Virus record (IMG/VR): IMGVR_UViG_3300025383_000010
Direction: 5' to 3' (one strand)
Length of the DNA: 64,000 nucleotides
From: a virus
The notes under the pieces are model-generated. The model had not been told where the DNA came from. It was given only the letters and a program-made list of their open reading frames with translations, and made no database searches. The position numbers and the translations under genes are program-made. Positions 45,893 through 60,795 of this stretch are shown here, one piece after another; the first letter of the stretch is position 1; every line of letters starts with the position of its first letter.

Positions 45893-46050
45893 AAGAGTGT
45901 ATTAACTTTTAGAAACACTAGTCCTGCAATAGCCTGGGTCGGGCATTTATCGTCTTTGACAGCAGTTCGTAGTGTATGACTTGCATAGCGCCCATATTCG
46001 TTAGCCTATTTGTTCGCTTGATTTCTCAAGTATGCAAGTTATCTAAACTT

Positions 46051-46125: not shown

Positions 46126-46204
46126 TGGTTGCGGGGGTCGGATTTGAACCGACGATTTCCGGCTTATGAGACCAGCGAGGACGACCAGACTCCTCTACCC
46201 CACG
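46126..46204 (-). tRNA. tRNA-Met(CAU), initiator-like
   Basis: C1.A72 mismatch, CAT anticodon. Confidence 0.85.
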
Positions 46205-46211
46205 ACACTAA

Positions 46212-46270
46212 ACTATTTTGAAGAACACACAAACAATTTTGGGAGGTGCATATGTGTTCATCAAAATAGT
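46212..46270 (-). ncRNA. Closing-stem RNA A
   Basis: ACUAUUUUGA-U-GAACACA / UGUGUUC-U-UCAAAAUAGU. Confidence 0.55.
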
Positions 46271-46279
46271 CTAATATTA

Positions 46280-47125
46280 TTTATCTTTTGTACAGCCTGA
46301 GATTACAGCTTTAGACGAGTGACTTTGGTCATTACCGAATCCCTTGCGAGGACCGTTCTACCGTTATCCACTAGAGCTTGTTACAGTCATCTAGTATCAC
46401 TCAATGCTGCCTTTTTGAGAGTCTGGCGTTTGACTCGTCGCACTATGCTATTCGACCATCTATCTTTCGTTAGCCTTGCGGGCTATTCACAGTCGCTAAA
46501 CCGTTACGCTTTCTTTCCGATCAATCAGTTCGGCCTTGCGGGCTTCCCTGAACCTCATTCCCTTGCGAGTGAGGTATTAAGCACCTTTCACATAGTACCG
46601 GAGCAGTCTTTCGCTTTTGTTTATCAAATTAGGATTTGAACCTAAGCCGATCCATTAGAAGTGGATTACTCTACCGCTGAGTTATTTGCGAACCTACCAA
46701 GATGTGCTGCTCCAGTTGCTCCATACCTTGTTAGATACAGAATACAACACACCTCATGTCTTTTGCCTTGCGGGCTACTCAACCATACTTCACGGATCCG
46801 GAGCAAGTGTCCTCCTTCTTCGTTTGTATTGCTATCTTGCCTTTCCTTGCGAGGTCAGACTCAATAACTACCTGTTAACCTTCGATATTCGTCAGTTTGG
46901 CTGTACATCGTGAGAGCGCCAACCCTCTTATCTACTCACCGATTTGGCTCTGTAGACTATCCCCTTCGGGACGCTATACCTGACTTACTACCTACCGCCT
47001 TTCTACGGACGGGCCTTTCGGCTAGTTCAGGCTTGCATAGATGGACTCTTACGAGCGCAAGTTTATAGGAAACCTTGCTTTAGGCACATTACTGTGCTTA
47101 CCCTAATGAGGCTATGCCCCCAATT
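46280..47125 (-). ncRNA. Large structured RNA, GOLLD-like candidate
   Basis: ~850 nt with no credible ORF; about 9 GNRA-capped hairpins on the minus strand; dedicated promoter; adjacent to tRNAs. Confidence 0.6.
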
Positions 47126-47136
47126 CTTATATTCAA

Positions 47137-47205
47137 TTTTCAAAGAGCTAAGACAATCTCTTGTCTTGATAAACTCATTATATCAAAGTTCGTAACCGTT
47201 GTCAA
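47137..47205 (-). promoter_or_regulatory. Consensus promoter with boxB-like hairpin and boxA
   Basis: TTGACA-17-TATAAT; AAGACAA-GAGA-TTGTCTT; GCTCTTTGAAAA. Confidence 0.75.
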
Positions 47206-47491
47206 GAACTTTTTTGCCTATTTACGAAAAAAGTTTGGAAGAGAAAGAGTAAGTGATAGACAAAGCAATATGCAGCGACCAACCCAAAGGGTAAAATCTA
47301 TACACACTGAACACTAAACAAACTGCAAAATAGCGTATGTCCAAGCAAGCAATTCACAAAGTTGAATAAAGCCTGGTTCATGCTATTATAAGCGTTTCGA
47401 GCGCCGTGCTGTAAAGTATCATCCGATACCAGGGTGTCTACTCTAATCTCTCTTTCTCTCCCCGGTAACATCCGAAGATGCTACCAAACTG

Positions 47492-48052
47492 TTAGAGGAT
47501 ATCCTCGTTAGTCAGTGTTGCAACTGTCTCGTCGGACAGTTCAATGGTCGTGCGAACATTAAGTTCAAGCAACTCATCCTGCAACTTCTGCTTTTCCTTC
47601 TTTGCCTTGACAGCAAGACGATTAAGGGTCTTGATGTCATTCTGGGTAAAGATAGAAGTTTCTACTTCTGCCTTAGCATAGTAGCTATCTTCCGTGCGGT
47701 TGGCAATCTTCACGAGCTTGCCACGAATGACTTCACCGTCCAAACGTTCCTTAGCCTTGCTATAAGCAGTGAAGAAAGTTACTTCCTTCTCTAGAAAAGC
47801 AAGATCAGCGAGACGACCATCAATGTCGTTAGTTGCGTTAGCAGATGCAGTTGCTTTGCGGATCTCATAGAGACTACGGAGCAGTGCATTACGACGGTTG
47901 ATGTTATCAAAGAAGGTCGTTGACGCAGCAGCGATCACTTCTTCTGGCTTCTGGAATTCATTGATGCTGACATCAGCCTTGAATTCAAGGCCCTTAAGAG
48001 CTTCGTTGATTGCGATCTGGATTGCATTTGCCTTACGTAGTGAAACTTGCAT
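47492..48052 (-). CDS. Hypothetical coiled-coil protein
   Basis: ORF track. Confidence 0.75.
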   Translation of the reverse strand: MQVSLRKANAIQIAINEALKGLEFKADVSINEFQKPEEVIAAASTTFFDNINRRNALLRSLYEIRKATASANATNDIDGRLADLAFLEKEVTFFTAYSKAKERLDGEVIRGKLVKIANRTEDSYYAKAEVETSIFTQNDIKTLNRLAVKAKKEKQKLQDELLELNVRTTIELSDETVATLTNEDIL

Positions 48053-48122
48053 TCTTCTTCCCTTTGTGTTTCATTGCTTATACTATAAACCAATATGATA
48101 ATCAATCATTTTGGGTAAACTT

Positions 48123-48199
48123 TGGTAGCAGTAGCAGGATCCGAACCTGCGACCTTCCGGATATGAGCCGGACGCTCTGACCAACTGAGCTATACTGCC
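48123..48199 (-). tRNA. tRNA-Met(CAU), elongator-like
   Basis: Cloverleaf. Confidence 0.85.
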
Positions 48200-48202
48200 A
48201 TA

Positions 48203-48580
48203 TTATGTAAAAGTCTTCAACGCTTTCAAATCGTCACCGATGTTGTCTTCACTGATAGGACCAAGACCAAGACAAGTCGTAGTTGGTTCATTGAACACAG
48301 TGAATCCAGCGTCAGTTACAAGACTCGTACCGCAGACATCCTTATACTTTTCCTGGAGAGCCTTAAGCTCATCAACAGTATCTACGATAAGAGTAATCTT
48401 GTAAGCACGGTCGCTATTCATGTATGCTCGTACTTGATCAATAAAGCACTTCTCAGGATTCAAAGAATCCCAATAAGCATGTAGATAAGCATGGCCTGCT
48501 TGAGTACACATCTTACCTCGAATACCTTTCATCTTTGCAACGCTCTCTTTGGCAAAGATAGCGTACATTTTGTATTTCAT
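48203..48580 (-). CDS. Peptidyl-tRNA hydrolase Pth2 family
   Basis: GK.CTQAGHA, KITL.V, V.DAG.T......T.LGLGP. Confidence 0.85.
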   Translation of the reverse strand: MKYKMYAIFAKESVAKMKGIRGKMCTQAGHAYLHAYWDSLNPEKCFIDQVRAYMNSDRAYKITLIVDTVDELKALQEKYKDVCGTSLVTDAGFTVFNEPTTTCLGLGPISEDNIGDDLKALKTFT

Positions 48581-48729
48581 AACATTCTCCACTATCAATA
48601 ATTTGCCATAAAATCACTGGGTAAACCTGAGGACTCTTGCCCCACCTTTTTATTATCATACACGCCGGCAACCCTGCAGCGTCAGGTGTACTCTCTCGCT
48701 ATAGCATATGCATCTGTTATAGCATGAAT

Positions 48730-48815
48730 TGGAGGACGTAGTGAGGCTCGAACTCACAAGGCATTTCTGCGGCAGATTAAGAGTCTGCTGGACCAACCAA
48801 TTGTCCAATACGTCC
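48730..48815 (-). tRNA. tRNA-Lys(CUU) with long variable arm
   Basis: GCAGA-CT-CTT-AA-TCTGC; 86 nt. Confidence 0.8.
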
Positions 48816-48904
48816 ATATAAACTGTCCGTTTTGTTTTCAACGACTACGGGGAGAACTTAATCTCCTTCAGGCATTGGTTCAGCAGACGGTACTGCTTAT
48901 TGAT

Positions 48905-49004
48905 AAAACAACTTAGAAGAACACAGACCCGCAATGCGGGAGTTGGTTGCTAACATTATGATATCTAAGAAAGCACTACCTACTGTGTTCATCTAAGTTG
49001 TTTT
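48905..49004 (-). ncRNA. Closing-stem RNA B
   Basis: AAAACAACUUAGA-U-GAACACAG / CUGUGUUC-U-UCUAAGUUGUUUU. Confidence 0.55.
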
Positions 49005-49125
49005 CAAGCAACGAGAAGCTAGTCCACTTAGCAATAACTAGCAATATACGAAAGACCATTCGGAGCTTCTCGTCACTTGATATACTAGATATACTATACT
49101 TCTCGTTGCTTGTCAACCGTTTTTT

Positions 49126-49500
49126 TTACTTTTTCAAAGTTTCTTTCTTACAATATACACTTTCGCTGTAATAACCATTTGAAGTTCCGAGGAACCTAAT
49201 AGTCACATACCCCTTGAAGGTTGCGAAGTTGTAGAAGGTCCACGTATAGGATTCTTCATCTAATTTTGTTCCATCCGCATTGTGATCTTCACGAGCGATT
49301 AGCAATGGCCAACCCGCGAGGTCTTCAAGATCACCGTTGATATCTTCAACTACCACTGATTCGCAACAATCTTGATCATGATAAAGCACATAACATACTT
49401 CATCGTTTTCAAACGTTACTGTATCCATAGTAGCAGTAACCTTAGAGAAGGTCTTACCAAGCATATCATTAACGTCTACATGAGTATCACGCCAGCCCAT
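49126..49500 (-). CDS. Hypothetical phage protein
   Basis: HDQDCCESV...TWTFY...SNGYYSE. Confidence 0.75.
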   Translation of the reverse strand: MGWRDTHVDVNDMLGKTFSKVTATMDTVTFENDEVCYVLYHDQDCCESVVVEDINGDLEDLAGWPLLIAREDHNADGTKLDEESYTWTFYNFATFKGYVTIRFLGTSNGYYSESVYCKKETLKK

Positions 49501-49522
49501 TGCCTTCTCCTTTCTGTGTATT

Positions 49523-49598
49523 TGGTGAACCGGGAGGGGCTTGAACCCTCGACCCTAGGCTTAAAAGGCCCATGCTCTACCTACTGAGCTACCGGTCC
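49523..49598 (-). tRNA. tRNA-Lys(UUU)
   Basis: Cloverleaf. Confidence 0.9.
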
Positions 49599-49607
49599 AT
49601 ATAACTT

Positions 49608-49681
49608 TGGTGGTTCCGGGAAGAATCGAACTTCCAATGACCGATTATCAGTCGGTCGTTATACCATTTAACTACAGAACC
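49608..49681 (-). tRNA. tRNA-Ile(GAU)
   Basis: Cloverleaf. Confidence 0.9.
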
Positions 49682-49687
49682 AAATAA

Positions 49688-49775
49688 TGGAGCCCGGTGC
49701 AAGATTTGAACTTGCGTGGAGAATACTCTCGGAGGATTTGCAGTCCTCTGCATTCGGCCGCTCTGCCAACCGGGC
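49688..49775 (-). tRNA. tRNA-Cys(GCA) with long variable arm
   Basis: GAGGA-CT-GCA-AA-TCCTC; 88 nt; U73. Confidence 0.85.
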
Positions 49776-49833
49776 GTTTATTTCTTTATAGATTTCTTAT
49801 AACAACATTCAGAACGAATGTCAACCATTATCT

Positions 49834-49921
49834 TGGCGGAAGGTGTGGGAATCGAACCCACTCAACCCTTGCGGGTTGTACAGATTAGCAATCTGCTGCA
49901 TTACCAGCCTGCCCACCTTCC
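49834..49921 (-). tRNA. tRNA-Ser(GCU)
   Basis: Type II cloverleaf. Confidence 0.9.
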
Positions 49922-49933
49922 TTATAGATATAT

Positions 49934-50632
49934 TTACTCTAGTATGCTATTCTCTACTAAATCTTTTTTCTTCCAGACTACGAGAGGTTCAGAGAACTGC
50001 GACCACTTACAGCGATCTAGCGCAGTTTCATAACCCTTAATCTCTAAATACCCTCCCATTTCTTCAACGTAGAAATCCGGAGTGTAATGACTCAAGTTAC
50101 CTTTAAGATTAGTATAGGGGAATCGTGTAGTATTTCGTTTCCACATATATCCTTTAAGGTCTAGCCATTTAGCAACCGCTAACTCCCAGGTGCCGTCTAC
50201 CCAGACAGTGCCTGCGATCGGAGATACATACTGAATCTTCTTGCACCTACCTGCCTTTGGCATCCATCCGGATTCATATCTTGCAAGAATGTTTTCTCTA
50301 GCACGAGAAGCGTGTTCTAGTTTCTGTTCAGGAGTAAAGTTCTTGTATGAGCCTTTTCCTTTATTACCCAATGATCGGGACAAGCGTTGGGCAAGTGCTT
50401 CATTGCCGTACAATGCATCGTAAGTTTTACCCAACAACGCCTTTCCGCTAGTATTGCCCTTAGGGTGCCCATTCTTCCAATAAGAGTCACCTGCTATAGC
50501 CCGCCTAGCTTTGACTCTATCGCTATTCTTGGCCTTCATTGCAGGACAAGAGCTTGGTGAGTTGCTACAACAGTTTTTACTGTTCTTAAGCGTTTTTATA
50601 GCTTTGCTACCACAACCATAATCACAGATCAT
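49934..50632 (-). CDS. PD-(D/E)XK endonuclease with Cys-rich N-terminus
   Basis: WE, YTPDFY, LEIKG. Confidence 0.8.
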   Translation of the reverse strand: MICDYGCGSKAIKTLKNSKNCCSNSPSSCPAMKAKNSDRVKARRAIAGDSYWKNGHPKGNTSGKALLGKTYDALYGNEALAQRLSRSLGNKGKGSYKNFTPEQKLEHASRARENILARYESGWMPKAGRCKKIQYVSPIAGTVWVDGTWELAVAKWLDLKGYMWKRNTTRFPYTNLKGNLSHYTPDFYVEEMGGYLEIKGYETALDRCKWSQFSEPLVVWKKKDLVENSILE

Positions 50633-50690
50633 ACTTTATTTCCTTGTATGATCTATTTATCATTTGTTCGTTAAACAAGTGGTTTAAGCC

Positions 50691-51095
50691 TCATATATCC
50701 AAATGTTTTCTCGCATTTTCAATGTATCCAGTGATACGTTCTTTTCCAGCAGGGTTCATTGAGTGAACAATGTACTTAGGGAACTTGAAACCTTTCTCAC
50801 TGCAATAGTCAACGAGCCACTTGGCACAATCGTAACCAGTCTTTTCAGTACCATAGTCTACGATAGTTTCAAGCTGTTTGACAGGATCACTTTCGTTTTC
50901 TTTGAGCATAGCTATATAATGTTCGTCAGCTAGATCATGATCAAAACAAACGAAAGCTGGCATTCCTCCGCGAGAGATTTGATTGACAAATCCTTCATAG
51001 TTGCGAACAGTGAATGTAGTCTCAAAGCGAGGGAATTCAGCCCAAGTTACATCGTCAGGGTTTCTAACATCATCAAGAAACAGTACATACGACAT
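50691..51095 (-). CDS. Cyclic-phosphate-processing receiver-like domain protein
   Basis: LFLDD.R, FDHDL, TGYD...WL, HS.NP.G. Confidence 0.75.
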
Positions 51096-51113
51096 ATTTG
51101 GACTTTCTAAACT

Positions 51114-51201
51114 TGGCGGAGAGAGTGGGATTCGAACCCACGGAACCTTGCAGTTCAGCGGTTTTCAAGACCGCCGCAATCGACCACTCTGCCATCTCTC
51201 C
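51114..51201 (-). tRNA. tRNA-Ser(UGA)
   Basis: Type II cloverleaf. Confidence 0.9.
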
Positions 51202-51208
51202 GTATTTG

Positions 51209-51871
51209 TTAAAACTTTACACCTAGTGTAAAGCTAGTAATATCATTCTCTTTAATATCTCTAGTATATAGATTTTGAACACCAATTGCAACCAAATTAT
51301 TCAAGTTATACGTGATTGCAGCTTGATTTCGGTAATAATCAATGTTGCTCTTTTCATAAAGAAACTTGTTATACGCGGTCAATGGACCATTTGAATAACG
51401 GAACCAAACACTGTCACGAGCAACAAAGTAGTCACCATCGTCAGTGTGTCTATAACCAGCAGATAACTCATTGCTGACCTTGATATGATCGCTACGATAA
51501 ACCTTATAGCCCCAGCCGCTTGCAACAACATAAGTATTCTGCCAAGGACGGAACTGATTGTAATCGTAACGAATATCACCGATTACATAGTTTCTATCAT
51601 TCAATGCATAGTTACGCTTGATTTCAGCGGCACCCATGTTGACAGTTGCAACACTCTTGCTCTGCTGATAGTTATAGTTGATATCGTAAACTCCCTGCCA
51701 GCGACCATACTGCGTAGTCAACTCGCCGTCAACAGTAGCAGTGGCATTACCATGATCAGTAAACATTCCACCTACTGCTAATACAGCATGAGTTCCATCG
51801 GTTGTTTGATTACTCTGTGCATAGACAGGAGTTGCAAACAAAAGGGCTACTAGTGCAAAAAGTTTTCTCAT
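51209..51871 (-). CDS. Outer-membrane beta-barrel protein (DUF481-like)
   Basis: Signal peptide, amphipathic strands, terminal Phe (TLGVKF). Confidence 0.75.
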
Positions 51872-51958
51872 ATGTCTATTTAACTCTTTGTAAGGCGTGT
51901 TATAAAAAATGATTCGAATCTAGTACCGTACCGTAACGCAATAGGAATAAATAATAGT

Positions 51959-52396
51959 ATGAACAAATGCATTCACTGTGATAAAGAAACGTCAAATCCT
52001 AGATTCTGTTCAAAATCCTGCTCTGCTAAACATAATAATCGCGGAGTTTGCAGAGTAGAAAGAAAGGTGTTTCCTCATCCTTGCGCTCATTGCGGAACTA
52101 TTACTACATCAAAGAAGTATTGCTCTATGCAGTGTAGCTCAGATGCACTTAGAGTTAGTGAGGAGCACCTCAAAAAATCAAATGCAATGCGTCAAAGCAG
52201 ATATCGCGCAAGACAATACAAAGTTCTTGACCCCGGCGCTAATCTTGCAAAGATAAAAGAGATATATCGCAACTGTCCCGAAGGTCATGAAGTTGATCAT
52301 ATTGTGCCCCTTTCAAAGGGAGGGAAGCACCATGAAGATAACCTGCAATATCTCACTATCAAAGAGAATCGTAGCAAGGGCAATCGTTGGTGGTAG
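51959..52396 (+). CDS. HNH endonuclease (antisense to tRNA cluster)
   Basis: EVDHIVPLSKGG.H...NLQ.L...EN..K. Confidence 0.9.
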   Translation: MNKCIHCDKETSNPRFCSKSCSAKHNNRGVCRVERKVFPHPCAHCGTITTSKKYCSMQCSSDALRVSEEHLKKSNAMRQSRYRARQYKVLDPGANLAKIKEIYRNCPEGHEVDHIVPLSKGGKHHEDNLQYLTIKENRSKGNRWW

Positions 52397-52466
52397 TCCC
52401 GGCCGGGCACGATCCGACAACCTAGCCGTTATGAGCGGCCAGCTCTACCAATTGAGCTACGGGACC
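52391..52466 (-). tRNA. tRNA-CAU (Ile2-like), atypical T-loop
   Basis: GCCG-CT-CAT-AA-CGGC; T-loop ATCGTG. Confidence 0.75.
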
Positions 52467-52493
52467 ATATTATTGAGCTACAAGAGCAATGTT

Positions 52494-52579
52494 TGGTGCG
52501 CAGGGTTGGATTCGAACCAACGTAGTCTCACGACGGCAGATTTACAGTCTGCTGGTATTAACCACTCACCCACCTACGC
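52494..52579 (-). tRNA. tRNA-Tyr(GUA)
   Basis: Type II cloverleaf. Confidence 0.9.
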
Positions 52580-52585
52580 ATTAAC

Positions 52586-52813
52586 TTATAAAAACTGTTG
52601 GAGCCAACCATCAGCGAATGTCTTTACCTCATCATCTGCGGCAAAGTATGCATCCATGTCGTTGATTGCGTCAATAATGTCAAGAATGTCATCTTCAATA
52701 ATTCCTTGATTACGCAATGTGTCCAAGTAAGCAGTAAGGTCTAAGTTTACCCCTAGAACCTCCTGTTCTTCAATGTCCATCTTACCAAACTCAACGTGAA
52801 TAACTTCACCCAC
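52586..52813 (-). CDS. Acidic hypothetical protein
   Basis: GTG start with AAGGAG RBS. Confidence 0.7.
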   Translation of the reverse strand: MGEVIHVEFGKMDIEEQEVLGVNLDLTAYLDTLRNQGIIEDDILDIIDAINDMDAYFAADDEVKTFADGWLQQFL

Positions 52814-52830
52814 GATTGGCTCCTTTTAGA

Positions 52831-53028
52831 TTACTTGGCTTCTACCGAAGTATCACGATCAGTCTTACCACCAGCTACGTCAGTAGCAGCGGCAGTAGCA
52901 GCATCAGATGCAGCGTCAGATGCGGCGCTAGTAGCAGCATCAGTGCTGGCTGCTTCCGGAGCCTTACCGCTGCAAGCAGCAAGGGTAGTTAGTGCTGCAA
53001 CAGCAGCAAGAGTAACAATCTTCTTCAT
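52831..53028 (-). CDS. Small Ala-rich lipoprotein
   Basis: Lipobox LAAC. Confidence 0.8.
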   Translation of the reverse strand: MKKIVTLAAVAALTTLAACSGKAPEAASTDAATSAASDAASDAATAAATDVAGGKTDRDTSVEAK

Positions 53029-53088
53029 GTTATTTTCCTTGTTTTGTTTTTTGGACCCGTTTCATCGGATCTCTGTATTTATAGCGAC

Positions 53089-53164
53089 TGGTGACCCCTA
53101 CGGGATTCGAACCCGTGTCGTTGCCGTGAAAGGGCAGTGTCCTAGGCCTCTAGACGAAGGGGCC
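53089..53164 (-). tRNA. tRNA-Glu(UUC)
   Basis: Cloverleaf. Confidence 0.9.
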
Positions 53165-53172
53165 GCTAAACT

Positions 53173-53259
53173 TGGTGGGCGCGGTCGGACTCGAACCGAC
53201 ACGGAATAAATCCGGGAGATTTTAAGTCTCCTGCGTATGACCAATTTCGCCACGCGCCC
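53173..53259 (-). tRNA. tRNA-Leu(UAA)
   Basis: Type II cloverleaf. Confidence 0.9.
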
Positions 53260-53842
53260 GTAATTTGTTAGCTCTAGCGTAGTTCCCTCCCTTTGGGGTA
53301 AGACCTACTTTCTGTAATGCTTTTCTTATACTACTACATTCCTCAAGGGCTGTCAATAGCTCATCGTCACTTACTTTTACCTTTCCTGAGTTGATATTTC
53401 TACCTCTCCAGGTATCGGTCAATGCGTGGCAGTTGCAGCATAGTAGTTTGAGATTTTCTTTAATGTTGTTCTTATTGTCACCATCAATATGTTCTAACTC
53501 TAGAGGAACCTTATGACCTTGCCATTCTTCTAATCCACATGCTTCGCACCTGTGCCCGCGTTCTTGGATGAGAACAGCTTTATGACTACCAGTTCCACCG
53601 TATTCAAATACAGTGTTAGGATACTTATCCTTATTCCAATTCATGCGAGTTTTAGCATCCTCGCTCATTGATGAATATGCTTCTTTCGCAGAAGGTCTAG
53701 CACCGGTTGCATATACCCGTTTGGTTGCAAGCGAGTTTTTGCTTTTAATCTCCGGGCAGCCTGCCGGTCTCTTAGAACAGCAGTTTTTGCCATTCTTAAG
53801 AAGATAGTGAGAAGTCTGTCCACACCCATACTCACAATACAT
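53222..53842 (-). CDS. HNH endonuclease reading into tRNA-Leu(UAA)
   Basis: LELEHIDGD..NN...NL..LC.NCH; stop codon is the anticodon. Confidence 0.85.
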   Translation of the reverse strand: MYCEYGCGQTSHYLLKNGKNCCSKRPAGCPEIKSKNSLATKRVYATGARPSAKEAYSSMSEDAKTRMNWNKDKYPNTVFEYGGTGSHKAVLIQERGHRCEACGLEEWQGHKVPLELEHIDGDNKNNIKENLKLLCCNCHALTDTWRGRNINSGKVKVSDDELLTALEECSSIRKALQKVGLTPKGGNYARANKLRARGEIGHTQET

Positions 53843-53905
53843 AATAGTCTCCTATAATGTATTTATACCTGGTAGACAGACTTTTCACTTAAAACTTAAC
53901 CAACA

Positions 53906-53974
53906 TTGTCAAAGACCAGAATGTGTTTCTCACTCTGTATATCTCTTTATACGACATTGTTAGAGTAATGTCAA
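53906..53974 (-). promoter_or_regulatory. Promoter with boxB-like hairpin and boxA
   Basis: TTGACA-17-TATAAA; CAGAGTG-AGAAA-CACATTCTG; GGTCTTTGACAA. Confidence 0.7.
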
Positions 53975-53993
53975 GAACTATTTTCAGAAAGTT

Positions 53994-54067
53994 TGGCACG
54001 AGTGCAGGGATTTGAACCCCGACGAATGGTTTTGGAGACCATCATGCTACCGTTACACCACACTCGC
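53994..54067 (-). tRNA. tRNA-Trp(CCA)
   Basis: Cloverleaf, G73. Confidence 0.85.
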
Positions 54068-54204
54068 ATGTCGGGAGAGAGTTAACACAACTCTCTCCGT
54101 ATCCGCCCATGTTTTGATTATGGCCCAGCAGGAGAGGAAACTAGTGTTATTTTCCTCTTTGTCCTCAGGTACCAACGGAGTCACGGGAACTCCAACCTCG
54201 GTAT

Positions 54205-54597
54205 TTAGAAAGTGACAACACCACTGTCAATCACAGGATGTTCATCATCTGTGCGATCAACTACAGTGTAGGTGAACTTGTAGGTTCCAAGTTCCTTGAG
54301 CATATCTGCTACAGCTTCAATTGCGAAATCCTTGCATGAATATAGATCAAACTTATAAAAACTTGGTTCACCTGACCAAAAATGAATAGATGAGTGACTG
54401 GTAGTAATACCAACCATCCCCGTTACGCCTTCGTTTCCTTCATCGTCACACCAAACACAGATAGGATCAATTAACACCTTCATATCAACTGCTTCAACCA
54501 AACGATTGAACCAGTCTTCAAGAAACGTAACATACTCCGCAGTAGGAGCTTCTTCTAGATATCCTGTAACAAGGATGTGCTTATTAACTTGAGCCAA
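54205..54597 (-). CDS. speD: S-adenosylmethionine decarboxylase proenzyme
   Basis: GVTG...I.TSH.SIH.W, D.YSCK.F. Confidence 0.8.
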   Translation of the reverse strand: MAQVNKHILVTGYLEEAPTAEYVTFLEDWFNRLVEAVDMKVLIDPICVWCDDEGNEGVTGMVGITTSHSSIHFWSGEPSFYKFDLYSCKDFAIEAVADMLKELGTYKFTYTVVDRTDDEHPVIDSGVVTF

Positions 54598-54696
54598 CTC
54601 ATAAAACCTTTCGTTTCAATTTTACTGTCAGACAGTGAATAACTATTTATCACAAAAGGAAAAACTACAGATATTATCTGTAGCTTTCCTTGAATA

Positions 54697-54772
54697 TGGT
54701 ACCTGAGGAGAGGATCGAACTCCCGACATTTTCCGTGTAAAGGAAACGCTACTACCGCTGAGCTACTCAGGC
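54697..54772 (-). tRNA. tRNA-Val(UAC)
   Basis: Cloverleaf. Confidence 0.9.
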
Positions 54773-54778
54773 ATTATA

Positions 54779-54855
54779 TGGTCGGGAATGTAGGATTCGA
54801 ACCTACGACCCCCTGCTCCCAAAGCAGGTGCGCTACCGGACTGCGCTAATCCCCG
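54779..54855 (-). tRNA. tRNA-Pro(UGG)
   Basis: Cloverleaf. Confidence 0.9.
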
Positions 54856-54871
54856 ACGGTGGATTAATGTT

Positions 54872-54945
54872 TGGTGGAGACGGAGGGAATCGAACCCTCA
54901 AGTGCGCCTTGCAAAGGCGCCAGTTTCCCGTTAGCTTACGTCCCC
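54872..54945 (-). tRNA. tRNA-Ala(UGC)
   Basis: Cloverleaf, G3.U70. Confidence 0.9.
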
Positions 54946-55500
54946 AGAAACTTTATTATACTTATCATTCCATTTACTGATCTTAACAAAAAGTTCTTCA
55001 ATTGTCAAGTCACATTTTTTACCTTTTGACACATTTGTGCCATGCTGTAATAGTTGACAGTTAGCAGGGTGAGAGATTATTGACGGATCAATTCCGTTAT
55101 CAAATCCGTATCTCACACTCACAATATGGTCTCTACTGACACCTGTTAAATTATTACCACGATTTGTAGCTTTATACCAACCGTGCTGTTCAACTAGTAC
55201 AATATCAAACTCATCTGGAAAGTCAAACACATTAAACTTGAATGAACAGTCTGCTCTATAGTTTACGAGTTCCGGACGTTGACTTCTGACTTCGGTGTAG
55301 TCGCCGGGCTTTAGTGCTGCCCTTAGTTTACACGCAGAAGACAAGTCTCTTGGAACAAACAACCCAAGTCGTTTTGCTTTCTGAAAAGTTTTGAATGCTA
55401 TTCTAAACTTTCCCTGCAGGTCACGCTGCGACATACCAGCATCATACAACGCTTGTACTTCTTGCCAAGGCATATCGTGTATTAAAGTGCGCTTTCCCAT
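54931..55500 (-). CDS. HNH-like endonuclease overlapping tRNA-Ala 5' end
   Basis: SRDHIVS...HPANCQLL....N.SK. Confidence 0.75.
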   Translation of the reverse strand: MGKRTLIHDMPWQEVQALYDAGMSQRDLQGKFRIAFKTFQKAKRLGLFVPRDLSSACKLRAALKPGDYTEVRSQRPELVNYRADCSFKFNVFDFPDEFDIVLVEQHGWYKATNRGNNLTGVSRDHIVSVRYGFDNGIDPSIISHPANCQLLQHGTNVSKGKKCDLTIEELFVKISKWNDKYNKVSGDVS

Positions 55501-55516
55501 ATTAGTATTTATGTTT

Positions 55517-55593
55517 TGGCGTCCCCAGCAGGGCTCGAACCTGCAACCCCAAGTTTAGAAGACTCGTACTCTATCCAGTTGAGCTATGGAGAC
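55517..55593 (-). tRNA. tRNA-Arg(UCU)
   Basis: Cloverleaf. Confidence 0.9.
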
Positions 55594-55658
55594 AATCTCT
55601 CTTTACATGTTTACTTATACTAAAGATTGAAACGAATGTCAACCTCTTTTTTCAAGAA

Positions 55659-55734
55659 TGGTGCCGGCTAGAGGAGTCGAACCCCTGGCATCGTCATTAC
55701 AAGTGACGCGCTCTACCACCTGAGCTAAGCCGGC
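55659..55734 (-). tRNA. tRNA-Thr(UGU)
   Basis: Cloverleaf. Confidence 0.9.
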
Positions 55735-56276
55735 GTGTTCTTTAATAACTTGTTTCTTCTCTTGTATATAGCAGCATTAGAAACACCTAGAATATTTTCT
55801 AGTTCCCCAATCCCGTGTTTATCAAGCAAGTCTAACAAATCAATGCTGTCCCAGTCAACTTTTCTACTGTTCTTTTGGGCGCATATATGACTACAAAACT
55901 TTTGAGCAATAGGTTTTTTATCATTGCAGATAGGACAAGCATCATATTCTGACACTTTTTTAAAATCAGCAAATGCTTCATTAAACACTTCATACGTTTC
56001 CGGAAGCTCTCTAACGCCTGCATGAATCTCACTATGGCAATTGTGACATACCAGTATACACTTTCTAAGTTCATTTACAATCTTAGGCCATGCCTTTGGG
56101 TTTGCTCTAGCACCACCAAATCCAATGTCTTTCTGACTAGGATCAATGTGATGAAACGCCAGCGCAGCAGTATGCTTATTATATCCGCAACATTGACATT
56201 TGCTGCCCATTGCTTCTACCATTTTATCTTTGGTGTTTTCTCTCCAACGCTTTACGCTTTCTGATCTATAACTCAT
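55725..56276 (-). CDS. HNH endonuclease overlapping tRNA-Thr 5' end
   Basis: CQCCGY, FHHIDP, CILVCHNCHSEIH. Confidence 0.85.
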   Translation of the reverse strand: MSYRSESVKRWRENTKDKMVEAMGSKCQCCGYNKHTAALAFHHIDPSQKDIGFGGARANPKAWPKIVNELRKCILVCHNCHSEIHAGVRELPETYEVFNEAFADFKKVSEYDACPICNDKKPIAQKFCSHICAQKNSRKVDWDSIDLLDLLDKHGIGELENILGVSNAAIYKRRNKLLKNTPA

Positions 56277-56281
56277 AATAT

Positions 56282-56330
56282 AACCTCTAACCTGTAAATC
56301 TATTTATCAAAAGTTTGCAGGTTAGAGGTT
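56282..56330 (-). promoter_or_regulatory. RBS-sequestering hairpin with late promoter in its loop
   Basis: 13-bp perfect IR AACCTCTAACCTG/CAGGTTAGAGGTT around GATAAATA. Confidence 0.8.
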
Positions 56331-56336
56331 TTAAGT

Positions 56337-56411
56337 TGGCTCCCACGGATGGATTCGAACCACCGACCAGACGATTAACAGTCGTCGGCTCTGCCACTGA
56401 GCTACGTGGGA
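56337..56411 (-). tRNA. tRNA-Asn(GUU)
   Basis: Cloverleaf. Confidence 0.9.
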
Positions 56412-56469
56412 ATGAGAGAATGAACTCTTAATAATATTTAATAGTTGAAAGCAACGTGGATTTATTTTC

Positions 56470-57036
56470 CTACGCTGCCTTTAACATAATACGACTGTGC
56501 TTCGGAACACCTGACATTAGATACTCCATCTGGTCAGCAAGAATGCTACGATTCTGGAGAATCAAGTTTTCAAAGTGATTGGGTTCGTAAGGGATATACA
56601 ATAGTTCCATACGAGCTTCCTTAAGCGACTTACAACCCTTCTTTTGGTTGCAGTCAATGCAAGCAGTAACTACGTTAGTCCATTCGTCCAAACCACCGTG
56701 GAACCGAGGAACAATGTGATCACGGCTCAAGTCATTACGACTTGTGAAATGATTACCGCAATAAGCACAAATATGTCGGTCACGAGCGAACAGTGTACCA
56801 TTCGTCAACACAACCTTATTGTGCTTTTTGAAGTCAAAACCATGACCCTTAATAGCGATGATGCTAGGAGTTTCAATATAGCTGCGAGTGCCATCCTTTC
56901 GGACACCGCCTCGGTAACGTGCGATCACATCACCCATGCTCCATGCTACCAGGTCTTTTGCGTGATATGCAATCGCTTCGTCGTGGGAGACCCACGTGCG
57001 CGGGACACCTGAAATGTCAAGGGCTAGAACTGCCAT
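56470..57036 (-). CDS. HNH endonuclease (McrA-like type)
   Basis: LFARD...CAYCG, DHIVP...GG.D.W.NVVTAC..CN..KG. Confidence 0.9.
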   Translation of the reverse strand: MAVLALDISGVPRTWVSHDEAIAYHAKDLVAWSMGDVIARYRGGVRKDGTRSYIETPSIIAIKGHGFDFKKHNKVVLTNGTLFARDRHICAYCGNHFTSRNDLSRDHIVPRFHGGLDEWTNVVTACIDCNQKKGCKSLKEARMELLYIPYEPNHFENLILQNRSILADQMEYLMSGVPKHSRIMLKAA

Positions 57037-57136
57037 AAAAACTCCTGTTTCTTCCTGTATTTAGTAATCTACAAAGTGAATTCCTTATTGTGTTTTCACT
57101 ATACATTTGATTGACCGAATTGTCAACCGAAATCTT

Positions 57137-57222
57137 TGGTGCCCTAGAGAAGATTCGAACTTCCACGAGCTTTCGCCCACTACCACCTCAAGGTAGCGTG
57201 TCTACCATTCCACCACCAGGGC
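57137..57222 (-). tRNA. tRNA-Leu(GAG)
   Basis: Type II cloverleaf. Confidence 0.9.
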
Positions 57223-57229
57223 ATTAAAT

Positions 57230-57322
57230 TGGTGCACCCGGAGGGACTTGAACCCCCAACCGTTCGGTAATCTGCCGATCATGAGGTATAAGCTCACCGC
57301 TCTACCATTGAGCTACAGGTGC
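57230..57322 (-). tRNA. tRNA-Ile(UAU) with long variable arm
   Basis: GTGAG-CT-TAT-AC-CTCAT; 93 nt. Confidence 0.8.
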
Positions 57323-57323
57323 A

Positions 57324-57399
57324 TGGTGCTCTATACAGGAATCGAACCTGTTATCTCTGGGTTACGAATCCAGCGCATCGCCAGCAATGCTTATAGAGC
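57324..57399 (-). tRNA. tRNA-Thr(CGU)
   Basis: Cloverleaf with 31-39 mismatch. Confidence 0.8.
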
Positions 57400-57688
57400 A
57401 TTGAATGATTTTATAGTGGGCCTGCTGTACCACAACATCAGCAGCATTCCATACCTATTAAAAGCGCCGGTATATACTAGGGTGCGTTGTTGAAGTCGTT
57501 GTCAGATGGTTTCCATTTTGCGTACTTGAACCGTCATCCGTTACAGAGATTCAACTGGCCAGTATAGGCTCTGTGACTATTACTTCCAACACCCACTACA
57601 AAACTTTAGTATCCGCTCCCTGTGAGCACCTCATGTCATTAGGAGGCCATCCCTATGTTTAGCTCGGACTCGAACCGAGTAGATAATT

Positions 57689-57774
57689 TGGTGCCCGTAG
57701 AGGGACTTGAACCCCCACACCTTTTGGATACCTGATTTTGAGTCAGGCGCGTCTACCGATTCCACCATACGGGC
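57689..57774 (-). tRNA. tRNA-Leu(CAA)
   Basis: Type II cloverleaf. Confidence 0.9.
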
Positions 57775-57779
57775 AAAAC

Positions 57780-57953
57780 TTAATTTCCTGTTAAGCTGTA
57801 TAATACTACTGTATTGATAGGTTCACCCTCAAGATTCAACTGAAACGTTATTTGATCTGGCTTAATGCCATACATGTCAGGAGTAATCTCATATGAGAGG
57901 GTTAGATTATTAGCTAGATAATCTTTGATTTGTGCTTGAAGTTTTGGATCCAT
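57780..57953 (-). CDS. Small hypothetical protein (57 aa)
   Basis: Hand-read MDPKLQAQ...LTGN*; late promoter and GGAG RBS. Confidence 0.6.
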   Translation of the reverse strand: MDPKLQAQIKDYLANNLTLSYEITPDMYGIKPDQITFQLNLEGEPINTVVLYSLTGN

Positions 57954-58094
57954 TGTACTCTCCTATTGAGAGTATTTATCGCTTGGTACGGATGAAGGGA
58001 CTCGAACCCTCATCGACGTTATGATTGGTGCGGGTAGAGGGAATCCCGGTCCTCGGACATTTTCACCTGTCCTACATACCACCTTCGTGAAACT

Positions 58095-58172
58095 TGGTGG
58101 GGCTACCCGGACTCGAACCGGGAGAACTTTACGGCCTAAACGTAACGACTTTACCAATTTGCCCATAGCCCC
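58095..58172 (-). tRNA. tRNA-Leu(UAG) with short variable loop
   Basis: TTACG-TT-TAG-GC-CGTAA; 78 nt. Confidence 0.8.
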
Positions 58173-58183
58173 GTTGATTTTAT

Positions 58184-58846
58184 TTAGTTTAATTTCCTCT
58201 TAAAAGAAATATTATGTTCTGATATTAGATTTACTATCTTCTTAACTGATCCGTATCGTAAATCTAATTTTTCTAATACCTGATTCAAGTTTTCTGAATC
58301 CTTGATAGCAGCTATTAGCTGCTCATCGGTGTATCTACTTGTTTTGAACCCTTTTACCCAACCCTTTCTCCAAGTAGGAGTCTGTGCGTGACAGTTAGGG
58401 CATAGTAATTCAAGGTTATCCTTTGTGTTATCTTTGCGGTCGCCGTTTTTATGCTCCAATTCAAGAACAATCGGTTTTCCTCTCCACTCAGAGAGTCCAC
58501 AACCCTCACAACAATATCCTCTCTCAGCAATTAGTGCGCTTTTGTGCTGACCCTTTCCATTATGTGAGAAATCTGCATATCGTTTTCCTGCATTCCAATT
58601 CATGTTATTTTTGGCAGTATCAGATAACGATTCATAAGCCTCTTTCGCAGAAGGTCGTTGCCCGGAATCATATGCTGCTTTTCCGGCAGCGGAGTTTTTC
58701 TTTTTAATCTCAGAGCAGGAAGCGGCTCCAGGACCACACATCAGTTTACCTGACTTGTTTCTAAAGTTTGCAACCAAACCACATCCATAACTACATAATT
58801 CAGTAGTTATTATTGCTTCTGCTTTCTTGGGCCCTCTTTTACTCAT
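58184..58846 (-). CDS. HNH endonuclease (paralog of 53222-53842)
   Basis: LELEHKNGD..DN...NLELLCPNCH. Confidence 0.9.
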   Translation of the reverse strand: MSKRGPKKAEAIITTELCSYGCGLVANFRNKSGKLMCGPGAASCSEIKKKNSAAGKAAYDSGQRPSAKEAYESLSDTAKNNMNWNAGKRYADFSHNGKGQHKSALIAERGYCCEGCGLSEWRGKPIVLELEHKNGDRKDNTKDNLELLCPNCHAQTPTWRKGWVKGFKTSRYTDEQLIAAIKDSENLNQVLEKLDLRYGSVKKIVNLISEHNISFKRKLN

Positions 58847-59164
58847 AGTAGTGTTCCTTAATTGGGTGACACAACTATTTATCATTTAGTCTACCAATTT
58901 AGTATTTACTCGCCGTGATCCATGTCTCAAATTAAATCACTGATAGTATCTTTCAACTACTGCTACAGCCTTCGGGTACATAGGAGAGAATTGAGAATGT
59001 CCCCTATCTCATACGGCATACTGTACACACGCGAGTAATTAGGTGTGTTGTTTAGTCGTTACACTAAAAGCTACTTGTCATTTGGGATCCGAGTGAGGCG
59101 TCACCCGTCGATCCGGCCAGACTCCCAATGGGTTTTTTCACTTCCTTAGGGACAACACATAAAC

Positions 59165-59240
59165 TGGTGCCTGGGGACGGAATCGAACCGCCGACACGGA
59201 GATTTTCAGTCTCCTGCTCTACCAACTGAGCTACCCAGGC
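59165..59240 (-). tRNA. tRNA-Phe(GAA)
   Basis: Cloverleaf. Confidence 0.9.
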
Positions 59241-59245
59241 AGTAA

Positions 59246-59331
59246 ACTTATTAGAAGAACACACTGTCGTCACCACCATTCTCGCCCGTGTTACGGGGCC
59301 TATGTCCGTCCTGTGTGTTCATCTAATAAGT
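59246..59331 (-). ncRNA. Closing-stem RNA C
   Basis: ACUUAUUAGA-U-GAACACA / UGUGUUC-U-UCUAAUAAGU. Confidence 0.55.
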
Positions 59332-59334
59332 CTA

Positions 59335-59574
59335 TCATTGAGATAAACTTCTCAGGAATGCGAATACTTCTTCTTCGGAACGATAGATAGCGTGATGTGC
59401 TATCGGACGAGTTAACGCCACTTGATAGTGATCACCAAACTTTCTGATTATTCCGTAGCCCTCAAACCTACCATTACCTGCTGAACGATTGTTCCAGCGA
59501 GTGCGATAGCGATAAGGGAAAGATTCACATTCGTAGGTCACGCCGAGGATCTCAGCGCACTTTTCATAGAACAT
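59335..59574 (-). CDS. Hypothetical protein
   Basis: Start MFYEKC after AAGGA RBS; RTRWNNR..GNGR. Confidence 0.7.
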   Translation of the reverse strand: MFYEKCAEILGVTYECESFPYRYRTRWNNRSAGNGRFEGYGIIRKFGDHYQVALTRPIAHHAIYRSEEEVFAFLRSLSQ

Positions 59575-59599
59575 GATCTTCCTTTCTTTATATAAAGTC

Positions 59600-59674
59600 G
59601 TAACCCTCGTATGGGATTCGAACCCATGTTCCCGACCTTCCCGGTCGGCGTCCTGTCCGCTAGACGAACGAAGC
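59600..59674 (-). pseudogene. Degenerate Glu-like tRNA
   Basis: D and T arms intact; anticodon loop lacks U33; no CCA. Confidence 0.55.
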
Positions 59675-59762
59675 AAGAGATAAGTAAGATTCCCGTGATC
59701 AAATCGGGCGATCTTAATCTCTTGGACTTTCCCACCTATGATGATCAGCCATAGTCGGAAAC

Positions 59763-59861
59763 TGGCGTCGGGCGGGGGTTATTGCACCCTGCGGTTAAGC
59801 ATTTTCTCCATTCTTCTCGGGGTCTAGAAATCCCTCTGAAAGCAACTATGCCATACCCAAC
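59763..59861 (-). ncRNA. Atypical CCA-ended tRNA-like RNA
   Basis: 7-bp acceptor GTTGGGT/GCCCGAC-G-CCA; non-canonical arms. Confidence 0.45.
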
Positions 59862-59971
59862 ATTAAATTAATATGAAGTGTCAGAGTCGGCTCACCGATT
59901 TGAACGGTTAAGTAACTAGTATAGTATCCACATACCTACGCTCTGAAACGCACTAGACTCACTTCATAAAC

Positions 59972-60046
59972 TGGCGACCGTGAGGGATTACGATACCCCG
60001 ACCTTTCGCGTGACAGGCGAATGCTCTTCCTCTGAGCTACACGGCC
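59972..60046 (-). tRNA. tRNA-Asp(GUC), atypical T-loop
   Basis: TTCGC-CT-GTC-AC-GCGAA. Confidence 0.85.
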
Positions 60047-60450
60047 AATTTTCTAAGTTGTGCGAGTTTGCCTTTTCGGGCACCCTCGTTCATTCGTCTT
60101 CGTCCTTCTTCACTTACATTCTTTACACCCCAGGTGTCTGTTTGAGTGTGACAGTTAGGACATAGATATCTTAAATTATTTTGGGAATTATTGGAATTGT
60201 TCCCGTCAACATGATCTATCTGCAATCTTATATGTTTGCCATTGTATTCTGTAATACCACAGCAACTACATTTATATTCATTTGTGCGTCTAAAATAAGT
60301 CAGTGCATTATTACGGGTATAGTTACCACTTTCAATCTTCTTTCGTAGAGAGTCAATAATCTGACAATCTCTATTACAGTATTTTCCTAAGGTCTGTGAC
60401 GGGCGCCACATGAATTCAGTTTCACACACTGTACAATTAACTCTAGGCAT
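60037..60450 (-). CDS. HNH endonuclease overlapping tRNA-Asp 5' end
   Basis: LQIDHVDGNNSNN...NLRYLCPNCH. Confidence 0.9.
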   Translation of the reverse strand: MPRVNCTVCETEFMWRPSQTLGKYCNRDCQIIDSLRKKIESGNYTRNNALTYFRRTNEYKCSCCGITEYNGKHIRLQIDHVDGNNSNNSQNNLRYLCPNCHTQTDTWGVKNVSEEGRRRMNEGARKGKLAQLRKLAV

Positions 60451-60506
60451 TAGGTTAGTCCTTTCATAGACTATTTATCATTCTAACCTAACTAACGAGC
60501 CATTAA

Positions 60507-60610
60507 ACTTTTTAGAAGAACCCTGACAGGATTCGAACCTGCGCTAGGAAAACCCATTGAGGGCGTAAGTACCACTCTCACATTACATCAACAGGGTTCA
60601 TCTAAAAAGT
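60507..60610 (-). ncRNA. Closing-stem RNA D with tRNA T-arm
   Basis: ACUUUUUAGA-U-GAACCCUG / CAGGGUUC-U-UCUAAAAAGU; insert has GCAGG-TTCGAAT-CCTGT. Confidence 0.6.
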
Positions 60611-60727
60611 CTATCATAGTTAGGAAGAGTCACGGTGCTAGGGAGGGTCCGTTGCTCTATTTCAGGTCTTGCCAGTGCCACTCTCACGCCCTTAGCTTGA
60701 CCACCTAATAGAAAAATTCATTCAACA

Positions 60728-60795
60728 ATGTCAAAGAACAGAGAGTGTTTCGCTCTCTATGTTCTCGTTATAGCAAACAACGATACCGTTGTCAA
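60728..60795 (-). promoter_or_regulatory. Promoter with boxB-like hairpin and boxA
   Basis: TTGACA-17-TATAAC; AGAGAG-CGAAACA-CTCTCT; TGTTCTTTGACAT. Confidence 0.75.

Follow-up and report, generated by a model that had tools for sequence, protein, structure and literature searches.

The 64 kb stretch of viral DNA analyzed here (IMG/VR record IMGVR_UViG_3300025383_000010, called the window below) looks like a part of the genome of an uncultured T4-like jumbo phage. Its 43 tRNA genes (ARAGORN) are all encoded on the minus strand, from 45.8 to 62.5 kb, and interspersed among them are genes for HNH endonucleases and for a PTH2 peptidyl-tRNA hydrolase. Four hairpin elements, A to D, lie on the same strand within this cluster. 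In each, a long closing helix interrupted by one U.U mismatch is set around an insert of its own, the cargo. The four are members of an uncatalogued family of modular small RNAs that is confined to phages. A complete IMG/VR phage of 360 kb (G001) was syntenic with the window at approximately 84% DNA identity, and a near search of the cultured-phage collection returned no relative of the tRNA region. The four elements, in whole-stretch positions, are as follows, the bit scores being those of the covariance model R1 described below.

Element A, 46205..46277, minus strand: 17 outer bp, U.U mismatch (46260 with 46222), 9 inner bp; z = -9.5, 61.2 bits
Element B, 48905..49004, minus strand: 13 outer bp, U.U mismatch (48991 with 48918), 8 inner bp; 68.4 bits
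Element C, 59243..59334, minus strand: 13 outer bp, U.U mismatch (59321 with 59256), 8 inner bp; 73.0 bits
Element D, 60504..60613, minus strand: 13 outer bp, U.U mismatch (60600 with 60517), 8 inner bp; 72.9 bits

Four hairpins with a common closing helix

All four hairpins were found on the minus strand, a few bases at most from where a sequence-only reading of the window had placed them. The claim of that reading, that four minus-strand RNAs have a closing stem in common, was borne out by folding, by shuffles, by the rank of the inverted repeats and by a covariance model. The fold energies ranged from -31 to -43 kcal/mol (z = -5.1 to -9.5) and, for each of the four, none of 200 shuffled sequences was as stable. 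The pattern GATGAAC-N(50-80)-GTTCTTC occurred three times in the window against 0.01 expected from shuffles, and the version of the core pattern present in A occurred once against 0.00. No other inverted repeat in the tRNA region was as long as those of elements A to D. The stem covariance model found exactly A to D in the 64-kb window, with 61–73 bits on the sense strand and 40–47 bits on the antisense strand; the four belong to the seed of the model and their matches are therefore expected by construction. None of the four was matched by Rfam, either at the gathering score or at E <= 10, and the only matches nearby were GOLLD and tRNAs.

Read on the minus strand, elements B to D have the form 5' ..UUAGA-U-GAAC..cargo..GUUC-U-UCUAA.. 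3', and A has UUUGA/UCAAA instead, so that the core in the window reads (U/A)GA-U-GAAC / GUUC-U-UC(U/A). The helix consists of 13 outer bp (17 in A), the U.U mismatch, and 8 inner bp in B, C and D or 9 in A, giving a total of 22–27 bp. The stems had been announced as 17–21 bp long: the long stem was confirmed, and its actual length is slightly greater, at least 22 bp. The fixed U.U mismatch was present in all four elements. The announced covariation of the outer pairs was also observed, with UUGA/UCAA in A against UAGA/UCUA in B to D, and the outer helices (in B, AAAACAACUUAGA/UCUAAGUUGUUUU) differ from each other yet stay paired. The core itself is asymmetric, a purine strand facing a pyrimidine strand, with no dyad symmetry. 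A k-turn or box C/D reading of its GAUGA was dropped on inspection, as no sheared G.A pairs lie opposite.

The cargos were those that the sequence-only reading had described. The cargo of A, about 29 nt in length, is a short hairpin with a pyrimidine-rich loop containing CACCUCC, and A amounts to a minihelix of about 12 bp. An anti-Shine-Dalgarno mimicry by this CACCUCC is unsupported: it is a single case, the cargo is without relatives among the loci compared, and the G001 orthologue carries a different cargo. The 64 nt cargo of B forms two hairpins, and that of C (56 nt) also contains small hairpins. The cargo of D is a tRNA-like cloverleaf made of a D-like arm whose loop reads AGUGGUA, a hairpin (4 bp, 6-nt loop) standing where a tRNA has its anticodon arm, and a T-arm (GCAGG-UUCGAAU-CCUGU) which stacks directly on the inner helix; there is no free acceptor end. 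Neither ARAGORN nor Rfam made a tRNA or tmRNA call on any of the four elements. CCA is encoded by 43 of the 43 true tRNAs of the window and not by the stem elements. A short-peptide reading of ATGATAGAC... was abandoned, this sequence being present in C and D only.

A decayed fifth copy was located between tRNA-Gly(tcc) and tRNA-Gly(gcc):

Decayed fifth copy, 45905..46047, minus strand: 5' UUUAGA-U-AAC ... GUGUU-UCUAAAAGUU 3'

It has lost one or two bases in each core strand, its fold was no better than those of shuffled sequences (z = -1.5), and the model R1 gave no match on it.

A phage family with exchangeable cargos

The extent of the family was established by scanning IMG/VR for the 10+10-nt core with a 50–80-nt gap, which gave 21 loci on viral contigs, 14 of them with a true long stem enclosing inserts that differ widely from one another. 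Another 26 distinct elements came from a scan of metagenomes. Nineteen distinct elements were aligned (alignment A1), and the covariance model R1 built on this alignment was searched over the collected loci. The covariance-model search of phage sequence, proposed together with the first reading, thereby yielded 54 distinct full elements carrying 41 unrelated cargo clusters, all on uncultured phage contigs. Pattern matches at loci L005, L008/L016, L017, L027 and L030, and at 18.3 kb in the window, were set aside as false, and two matches of a half-site search (L037 and L040) were coding-sequence coincidences. A distant search of cultured phages with element D gave T-arm matches only, one of which pointed to rna2 and RNA IV of phage T5. 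No description of the stem family was found in the literature and, the family being missing from Rfam, its loci are currently annotated as empty spacers.

The stem pairs bear the mark of selection on RNA. In A1, 97.7% of the cells were paired, compared to 83% in column shuffles and approximately 45% with slid partners, and 14 of the 21 stem pairs had changed on both sides. The A1 sample was chosen for pairing, and the scan of cellular genomes is for this reason the fairer control. In 596 Gb of bacterial and archaeal genomes the core pattern was matched 42 times, which is about chance by a uniform-composition estimate, and some of these matches recurred in apparent coding regions; none of the 42 showed the extended stem, one marginal case excepted. 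Over the 54 elements, G.U and U.G accounted for 111 cells against 20 for A.C and C.A. Pairs that covary, with G.U exceeding A.C, indicate an RNA structure, as a palindrome acting at the DNA level would be without such asymmetry. The strand of the element was that of the nearest tRNA in 52 of 53 cases, and the sense strand scored about 25 bits above the antisense strand with R1.

Across the family the mismatch was U.U in 48 elements, C.U in two, and replaced by a pair in four. The outer helix is 13 bp long and AU-rich. The inner helix measured 8 bp in 16 elements, 9 bp in seven, 10 bp in 13 and 7 bp in one, and in five further elements a second mismatch interrupts the helix, leaving shorter uninterrupted inner runs. 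With an inner floor of 8 bp and 13 outer bp, the whole helix reaches at least 22 bp. The elements were collected with the exact core as bait, so that variation of the core is visible only in members found by the model: there GAAC becomes GAAU, GAGU or GAGC, paired via G.U or compensatory changes, and one member has a UAAAU/UUUUA core. AGA-Y-GA / UC-U-UCU is nearly constant across the family.

The cargos are conserved as structures and are exchanged between helices. The cargo of D was present in six distinct sequences, including that of the window, with its four-way junction kept by compensatory changes. The cargo of C has a relative in locus L197, inside an unrelated yet paired outer helix (AAGUAUCGUUAGA/UCUAACGAUAUUU). 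Conversely, one outer-helix sequence carries up to four unrelated cargos, and orthologous sites, for example upstream of tRNA-Phe or after GOLLD, carry different cargos in related phages. The same helix with various cargos and the same cargo in various helices imply an exchange of cargos, for which recombination inside the invariant core is the simplest route.

Another join was observed in G001. Compared with the window (60480-60680 and 59560-59640), the G001 sequence L090:1070-1290 has the leader, the 5' strand and the cargo of D up to the T-arm fused to the 3' end of a pseudo-tRNA-Ser(gga). The join falls in the common sequence GGTTCGAATCC, and about 900 bp of the window, containing the 3' strand of D, an HNH gene and tRNA-Asp, are absent. 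The position of the join in the T-arm sequence indicates that T-arms act as recombination microhomologies. The partner gene, called "tRNA-Ser(gga)" by ARAGORN at 59603-59674 (minus strand), is 72 nt long, lacks both a long variable arm and CCA, scored 37 bits with the Rfam tRNA model, and is probably not a serine tRNA.

Such exchanges raise the question of whether the whole family might be a DNA-level element, the hairpin RNA being a by-product. The elements would then be palindromic insertion ends like those of miniature inverted-repeat transposable elements, or recombination joints like the PeSL sequences of T4-type phages, and the segments would be shuffled between co-infecting phages. The association of one outer helix with up to four cargo clusters, the presence of the same cargo in different helices and at different array positions, the recombined T-arm of D in G001 and the richness of the cluster in HNH endonuclease genes are all in keeping with this, as is the one member located between two protein genes of an unrelated 83-kb phage, with no tRNA gene within its 14-kb locus. 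Recombination at a conserved core could also help to keep it uniform. It is nevertheless a very improbable explanation. Orientation is fixed relative to transcription (the 52 of 53 elements above), G.U outnumbers A.C five to one, and the U.U mismatch of the sense strand was kept in 48 of 54 elements. Outer helices have fully diverged and still pair, as in C and L197, and the cargos keep covarying folds of their own. No target-site duplication was seen, and no transposase is common to the carriers. The strand bias, the G.U excess and the conserved cargo structure likewise reject decayed mobile-element ends, which the sequence-only reading had named as the case that would overturn it. Shuffling at the DNA level can coexist with a function of the RNA and cannot be the whole story. 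Two other candidates of this kind were discarded: an integron attC-like site, since inspection showed that the R-box consensus is not matched, and a mimic of CRISPR repeats, since the repeats are inverted and not direct.

Position relative to tRNAs, leaders and GOLLD

Twenty-five of 52 elements ended 0–5 nt before the 5' end of a tRNA, an arrangement in which RNase P would set the 3' end of the element. The features adjoining the elements of the window are the following.

tRNA-Met, 46126..46204, minus strand: docked on the 3' end of element A
GOLLD RNA (Rfam-matched part), 46294..46755, minus strand: 207.5 bits, with a nested tRNA-Arg; just upstream of A
tRNA-Phe, 59165..59240, minus strand: docked on the 3' end of element C, which an RNase P cut at the tRNA 5' end would create
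Leader of D, 60729..60795, minus strand: TTGACA-17-TATAAC promoter-like site, boxB-like hairpin and boxA-like UGUUCUUUGACA (60740-60729), read from the sequence

Counted from the 13th outer pair of the model, the gap to the tRNA is 4 nt for A and 2 nt for C, which ends 2 nt before tRNA-Phe (59240); the own helix of A reaches 46205 and abuts tRNA-Met. Elements B and D appear to follow promoter-like sites with boxA-like leaders. The promoter-like site and boxB/boxA-like leader of D lie approximately 115 nt upstream of the element, and the resemblance of UGUUCUUUGACA to boxA was judged against the rrn boxA, UGCUCUUUAACAA. Upstream of B are a TTGACA promoter-like site (49116-49111) and a leader hairpin of 16 bp (49005-49085), and tRNA-Lys(ctt) begins 89 nt downstream of it. 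The PTH2-type gene (48203-48598, minus strand; Pfam E = 5e-15) is inside the tRNA cluster, downstream of B and tRNA-Lys(ctt). The 3' strand of the stem, GUUCUUCUAA, has UGUUCUU in common with the boxA-like UGUUCUUUGACA, a likeness that is probably coincidental.

Some 17 nt separate element A from the GOLLD match upstream of it, and the succession GOLLD, stem element, tRNA was seen again in other phage contigs (L137, L200 and L153/L111). In the four GOLLD loci examined (window 46205-46755, L137:3188-3787, L200:724-1318 and L153:5516-6271), a stem element was in each case located 3–146 nt past the 3' end of the GOLLD match. The UUUGA/UCAAA stem variant was present in three of these four, and a tRNA usually came next.

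The trailers of the tRNAs in the window often read (A)AGUUUA, the same words that end the 3' strand of the constant stem; the presence of this motif at the stem end accounts for the conserved G.U in AGAC/GUUU. The motif follows the CCA ends of tRNAs, for example at 46050-46044, 48122-48116 and 51113-51108, and in T5 it follows rna2. RNase E prefers RN|WUU, which the (A)AGUUUA spacer fits, and the motif may be a punctuation signal of the RNase E type common to tRNAs and stem elements.

The contact with tRNAs and the T-arm of D could suggest that the helix is a kind of extended acceptor stem. The element would resemble a precursor tRNA, or "t-element", in which a leader–trailer duplex prolongs the acceptor stem and RNase P cuts the 5' strand at or beside the unpaired U. 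An RNase Z-type cut after the C of GUUC, perhaps with CCA addition, might then leave tRNA-like or minihelix RNAs with a G(-1):C73 pair, an end like that of tRNA-His. In D and five relatives a 5-bp T-arm stacks on the 8-bp inner helix, so that 13 bp are stacked before the mismatch is reached. In a second tRNA-like cargo family (L004:8859 and L137:10185, and L117 by eye) the T-arm is 9–10 nt from the mismatch. In both cargo types the T-arm sits on the inner helix in the tRNA register, with G(-1):C73 and U(-2).U74, and this register is not family-wide. The inner helices are exactly 8 bp in B, C and D, the family floor, the minihelix of A has about 12 bp, and a T-arm of the form GGUUCRANYCC was present in 13 of the 54 cargos. 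Bacterial RNase P prefers a U just 5' of its cut and RNase Z a U at position 74. The YrlA RNA of M. smegmatis is cut by RNase P and receives CCA (PMC4201824).

We consider the precursor-tRNA reading improbable. The other 41 cargos are without a T-arm, and in several of those that have one it lies elsewhere, on the 5' side in L038 and internally in L018, L012 and L002. Inner helices vary from 8 to 14 bp, and covariation in 13 outer bp would be left unexplained if these were merely discarded flanks. A paired leader normally hinders RNase P, and the stem elements do not encode the CCA that all 43 true tRNAs do. Plant mitochondrial t-elements (PMC1920247) are tRNA-like folds within longer transcripts that serve as punctuation for RNase P and RNase Z, a likeness that bears on the D-type cargos. 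They belong to another domain of life and are not known to have a constant extended stem, and most cargos here are not tRNA-like.

Possible readers of the constant helix

The sequence-only reading had regarded the stem as a common processing or protein-binding handle, releasing or displaying different small RNAs from the tRNA transcripts. A common handle on unrelated small RNAs of the tRNA strand stands, in so far as the stem is an RNA module under selection. We propose, tentatively and with somewhat less than even confidence, that it is a handle for processing and stability read by a host double-strand-specific nuclease. We infer every enzymatic step of this model, and the functions of the cargos with them. 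The elements would be transcribed together with the tRNAs and freed by the host tRNA-processing enzymes, RNase P acting on the abutting tRNA to make the 3' ends of A and C and an RNase E-type cut in the (A)AGUUUA spacer making those of the remaining elements. The helix would clamp both ends against exonucleases, and the nearly invariant core AGA-U-GAA / UUC-U-UCU would be the recognition site of a host factor. The most likely reader would be an RNase III-type endonuclease with its cuts close to the U.U mismatch, after which the outer helix would be trimmed and the cargo left closed by the inner helix. The cargos would be the working parts, D as a tRNA mimic and A as a minihelix.

RNase III needs a helix of about two turns (20–22 bp or more), and the length of at least 22 bp makes its cleavage plausible here. 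Neither RNase III nor RtcB is encoded by the complete genomes of the 360-, 171- and 83-kb carriers, and the only protein that the unrelated complete carriers of 83 and 171 kb have in common is ThyX. These absences make a phage-encoded partner unlikely and imply a host factor. The stalks that enclose 16S and 23S rRNA at their RNase III sites, and the early RNase III sites of phage T7, are similar in having a helix of at least 20 bp that flanks a stable RNA and contains an internal mismatch or loop. As in the rRNA case, a promoter with a boxB/boxA-like leader lies upstream, a tRNA follows, and the unit is repeated along the transcript. Unlike in those stalks, the cargos are of 30–110 nt and unrelated to rRNA, and cleavage is presumed. 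The core is, unlike RNase III sites, nearly invariant across unrelated phages, and in many copies RNase P, by cutting the neighboring tRNA, would already free the element.

A parallel in genomic setting is found in phage T5 (GenBank AY543070), where eight stable RNAs are annotated in the tRNA region (I, III, IV, 1, 2, 2H, 3 and X), most of unknown function. Of these, III and IV, which GenBank lists as "stable RNA with unknown functions", are missing from Rfam. As in the window, RNAs of about 100 nt are interleaved with tRNA and HNH endonuclease genes on the tRNA strand. RNA III and RNA IV fold into one closing helix around three hairpins, and RNA III abuts the 5' end of tRNA-His as the docked elements do. 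RNA IV is annotated as starting and ending precisely at a 1x1 mismatch of its stem, the outer 7 bp of this stem (ACUUAUU/AAUAAGU) recur as part of the outer helix here, and the AAGUUUA spacer motif is also present in T5. In contrast to the family described here, the T5 stem core has no detectable homology to it (R1 gave 8.6 bits for RNA III and 9.2 bits for RNA IV, E = 4–6), and the T5 stems are shorter (12–16 bp) and differ from each other, without a constant handle. The T5 rnaX (L220:16849-17567, minus strand), which adjoins tRNA-Arg, is 719 nt long and has a nested tRNA-like match (17433-17504, 38 bits), recalls GOLLD; the GOLLD model did not match it at E <= 0.01. In T4, the species 1 and 2 RNAs (rnaC and rnaD) are stable non-tRNA RNAs at the end of the tRNA cluster, and rnaC has a T-arm and an acceptor-like end. 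They are without a long closing helix or a common handle, and R1 had no match in the T4 region.

Several points weigh against a nuclease of the RNase III type as the reader. The sequence specificity of RNase III is weak and does not alone explain a nearly invariant, asymmetric core. Part of this invariance is a product of the search, which started from the exact core sequence. Release of the tRNA-docked elements does not require RNase III. With 8–9 bits in the stem model the T5 RNAs are analogues only, whose ends are known here from annotation. The argument from the lack of a common phage protein depends on one element in one unrelated phage, that of 83 kb, and this copy could be a recent passenger.

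An asymmetric core whose 3' strand tolerates changes of the 5' strand via G.U is what read-out by a protein predicts, and the sequence-only reading had offered a Y-RNA-like stem as the alternative to an RNase III-like site. The helix would dock a host RNA-binding protein, Ro60/Rsr or an analogue, and the cargos would tether or decoy its partners, as in the association of Rsr with PNPase; the phage would thereby redirect or soak up a host RNA-surveillance factor. Bacterial Y RNAs (Yrn1/Yrn2, YrlA/YrlB) also come as sets of several RNAs with one common terminal stem and distinct distal modules (PMC4201824), these modules being tRNA-like or pyrimidine-loop hairpins, comparable to D and A. In D. 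radiodurans a single precursor gives rise to Yrn2, tRNA-Asp and Yrn1 (PMC4201824), a co-transcription with tRNA that recalls the elements here. Yrn1 resembles D in having its end-to-end stem at the acceptor position, a T-arm and a hairpin with a 6-nt loop. The proposed Rsr motif GNCGAA(N)G is carried by the 5' strand (PMC4201824; its animal counterpart is GGUCCGA), and GA-U-GAA matches it at five of six positions, with the unpaired base, a pyrimidine as in the motif, falling on the C. Two family variants read GACGAG. A related array contains a YrlA-like permuted tRNA-like RNA (L153:3165-3285, plus strand). It displays in order a T-arm, a closed acceptor hairpin with CCA and a D-arm inside a GGGAUAU/AUAUCCU stem, which is the YrlA topology.

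Both checks of a Y-RNA-like stem, a search for Ro60/Rsr in the carriers and one for YrlA, came out negative. No TROVE gene (PF05731) was present in five carrier records, three of them complete (360, 171 and 83 kb), in which the controls were matched and among which the genome of the window itself was not included. Neither YrlA (RF02553) nor Y_RNA (RF00019) matched the four elements at E <= 10 or at the gathering score. The C of the motif is a U in 48 of the 54 elements and a C in two. The YrlA-like RNA of L153 has a different closing stem and scored 40.6 bits, against an Rfam threshold of 69, and its permuted order, typical of YrlA, contrasts with D, which keeps the tRNA order. All the YrlA genes of Chen et al. 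2014 are at most 4 kb from a Ro60 gene, but this proximity was the search criterion and is uninformative on orphan Y RNAs (PMC4201824). We regard a Y-RNA-like docking of a host protein as unlikely, although it is the alternative that we take most seriously.

A nuclease handle, Y-RNA-like docking, a precursor-tRNA-like fold and a DNA-level element are not mutually exclusive. The boldest reading, which is unlikely, would make the constant helix a universal adaptor by which any small RNA, be it a tRNA mimic, a minihelix or a decoy, is connected to a single host protein or nuclease. Unrelated phages would swap cargos by recombination at the core and hijack or blunt host RNA surveillance or tRNA-targeting defence, and the whole would be equivalent to an orphan Y-RNA-like system that phages carry and that acts via a host factor. 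Such an adaptor, if real, would amount to an "RNA display scaffold" of natural origin, swappable and fitted with dozens of cargos.

Stable RNAs of unknown function have long been known in phage tRNA clusters, such as species 1 and 2 of T4 and RNAs I–IV of T5. Uncultured freshwater phages build such RNAs on a single conserved handle, and the present sample alone contains at least 41 interchangeable cargos. The combination of one handle with many cargos points to a common host partner and to a modular evolution of new small RNAs. Identification of this partner would explain what a large number of phage non-coding RNAs do, and could reveal a new anti-host or anti-defence strategy or supply a scaffold for the stable expression of small RNAs in bacteria.

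Finally, the tRNA cluster of the window contains other long inverted repeats, at 53806-53889, 56279-56333, 50890-50956 and 49004-49080, with arms of 17–20 nt and stems unrelated to those of the family. These four may be further hairpin cassettes, terminators, or hairpins over the starts of endonuclease genes.

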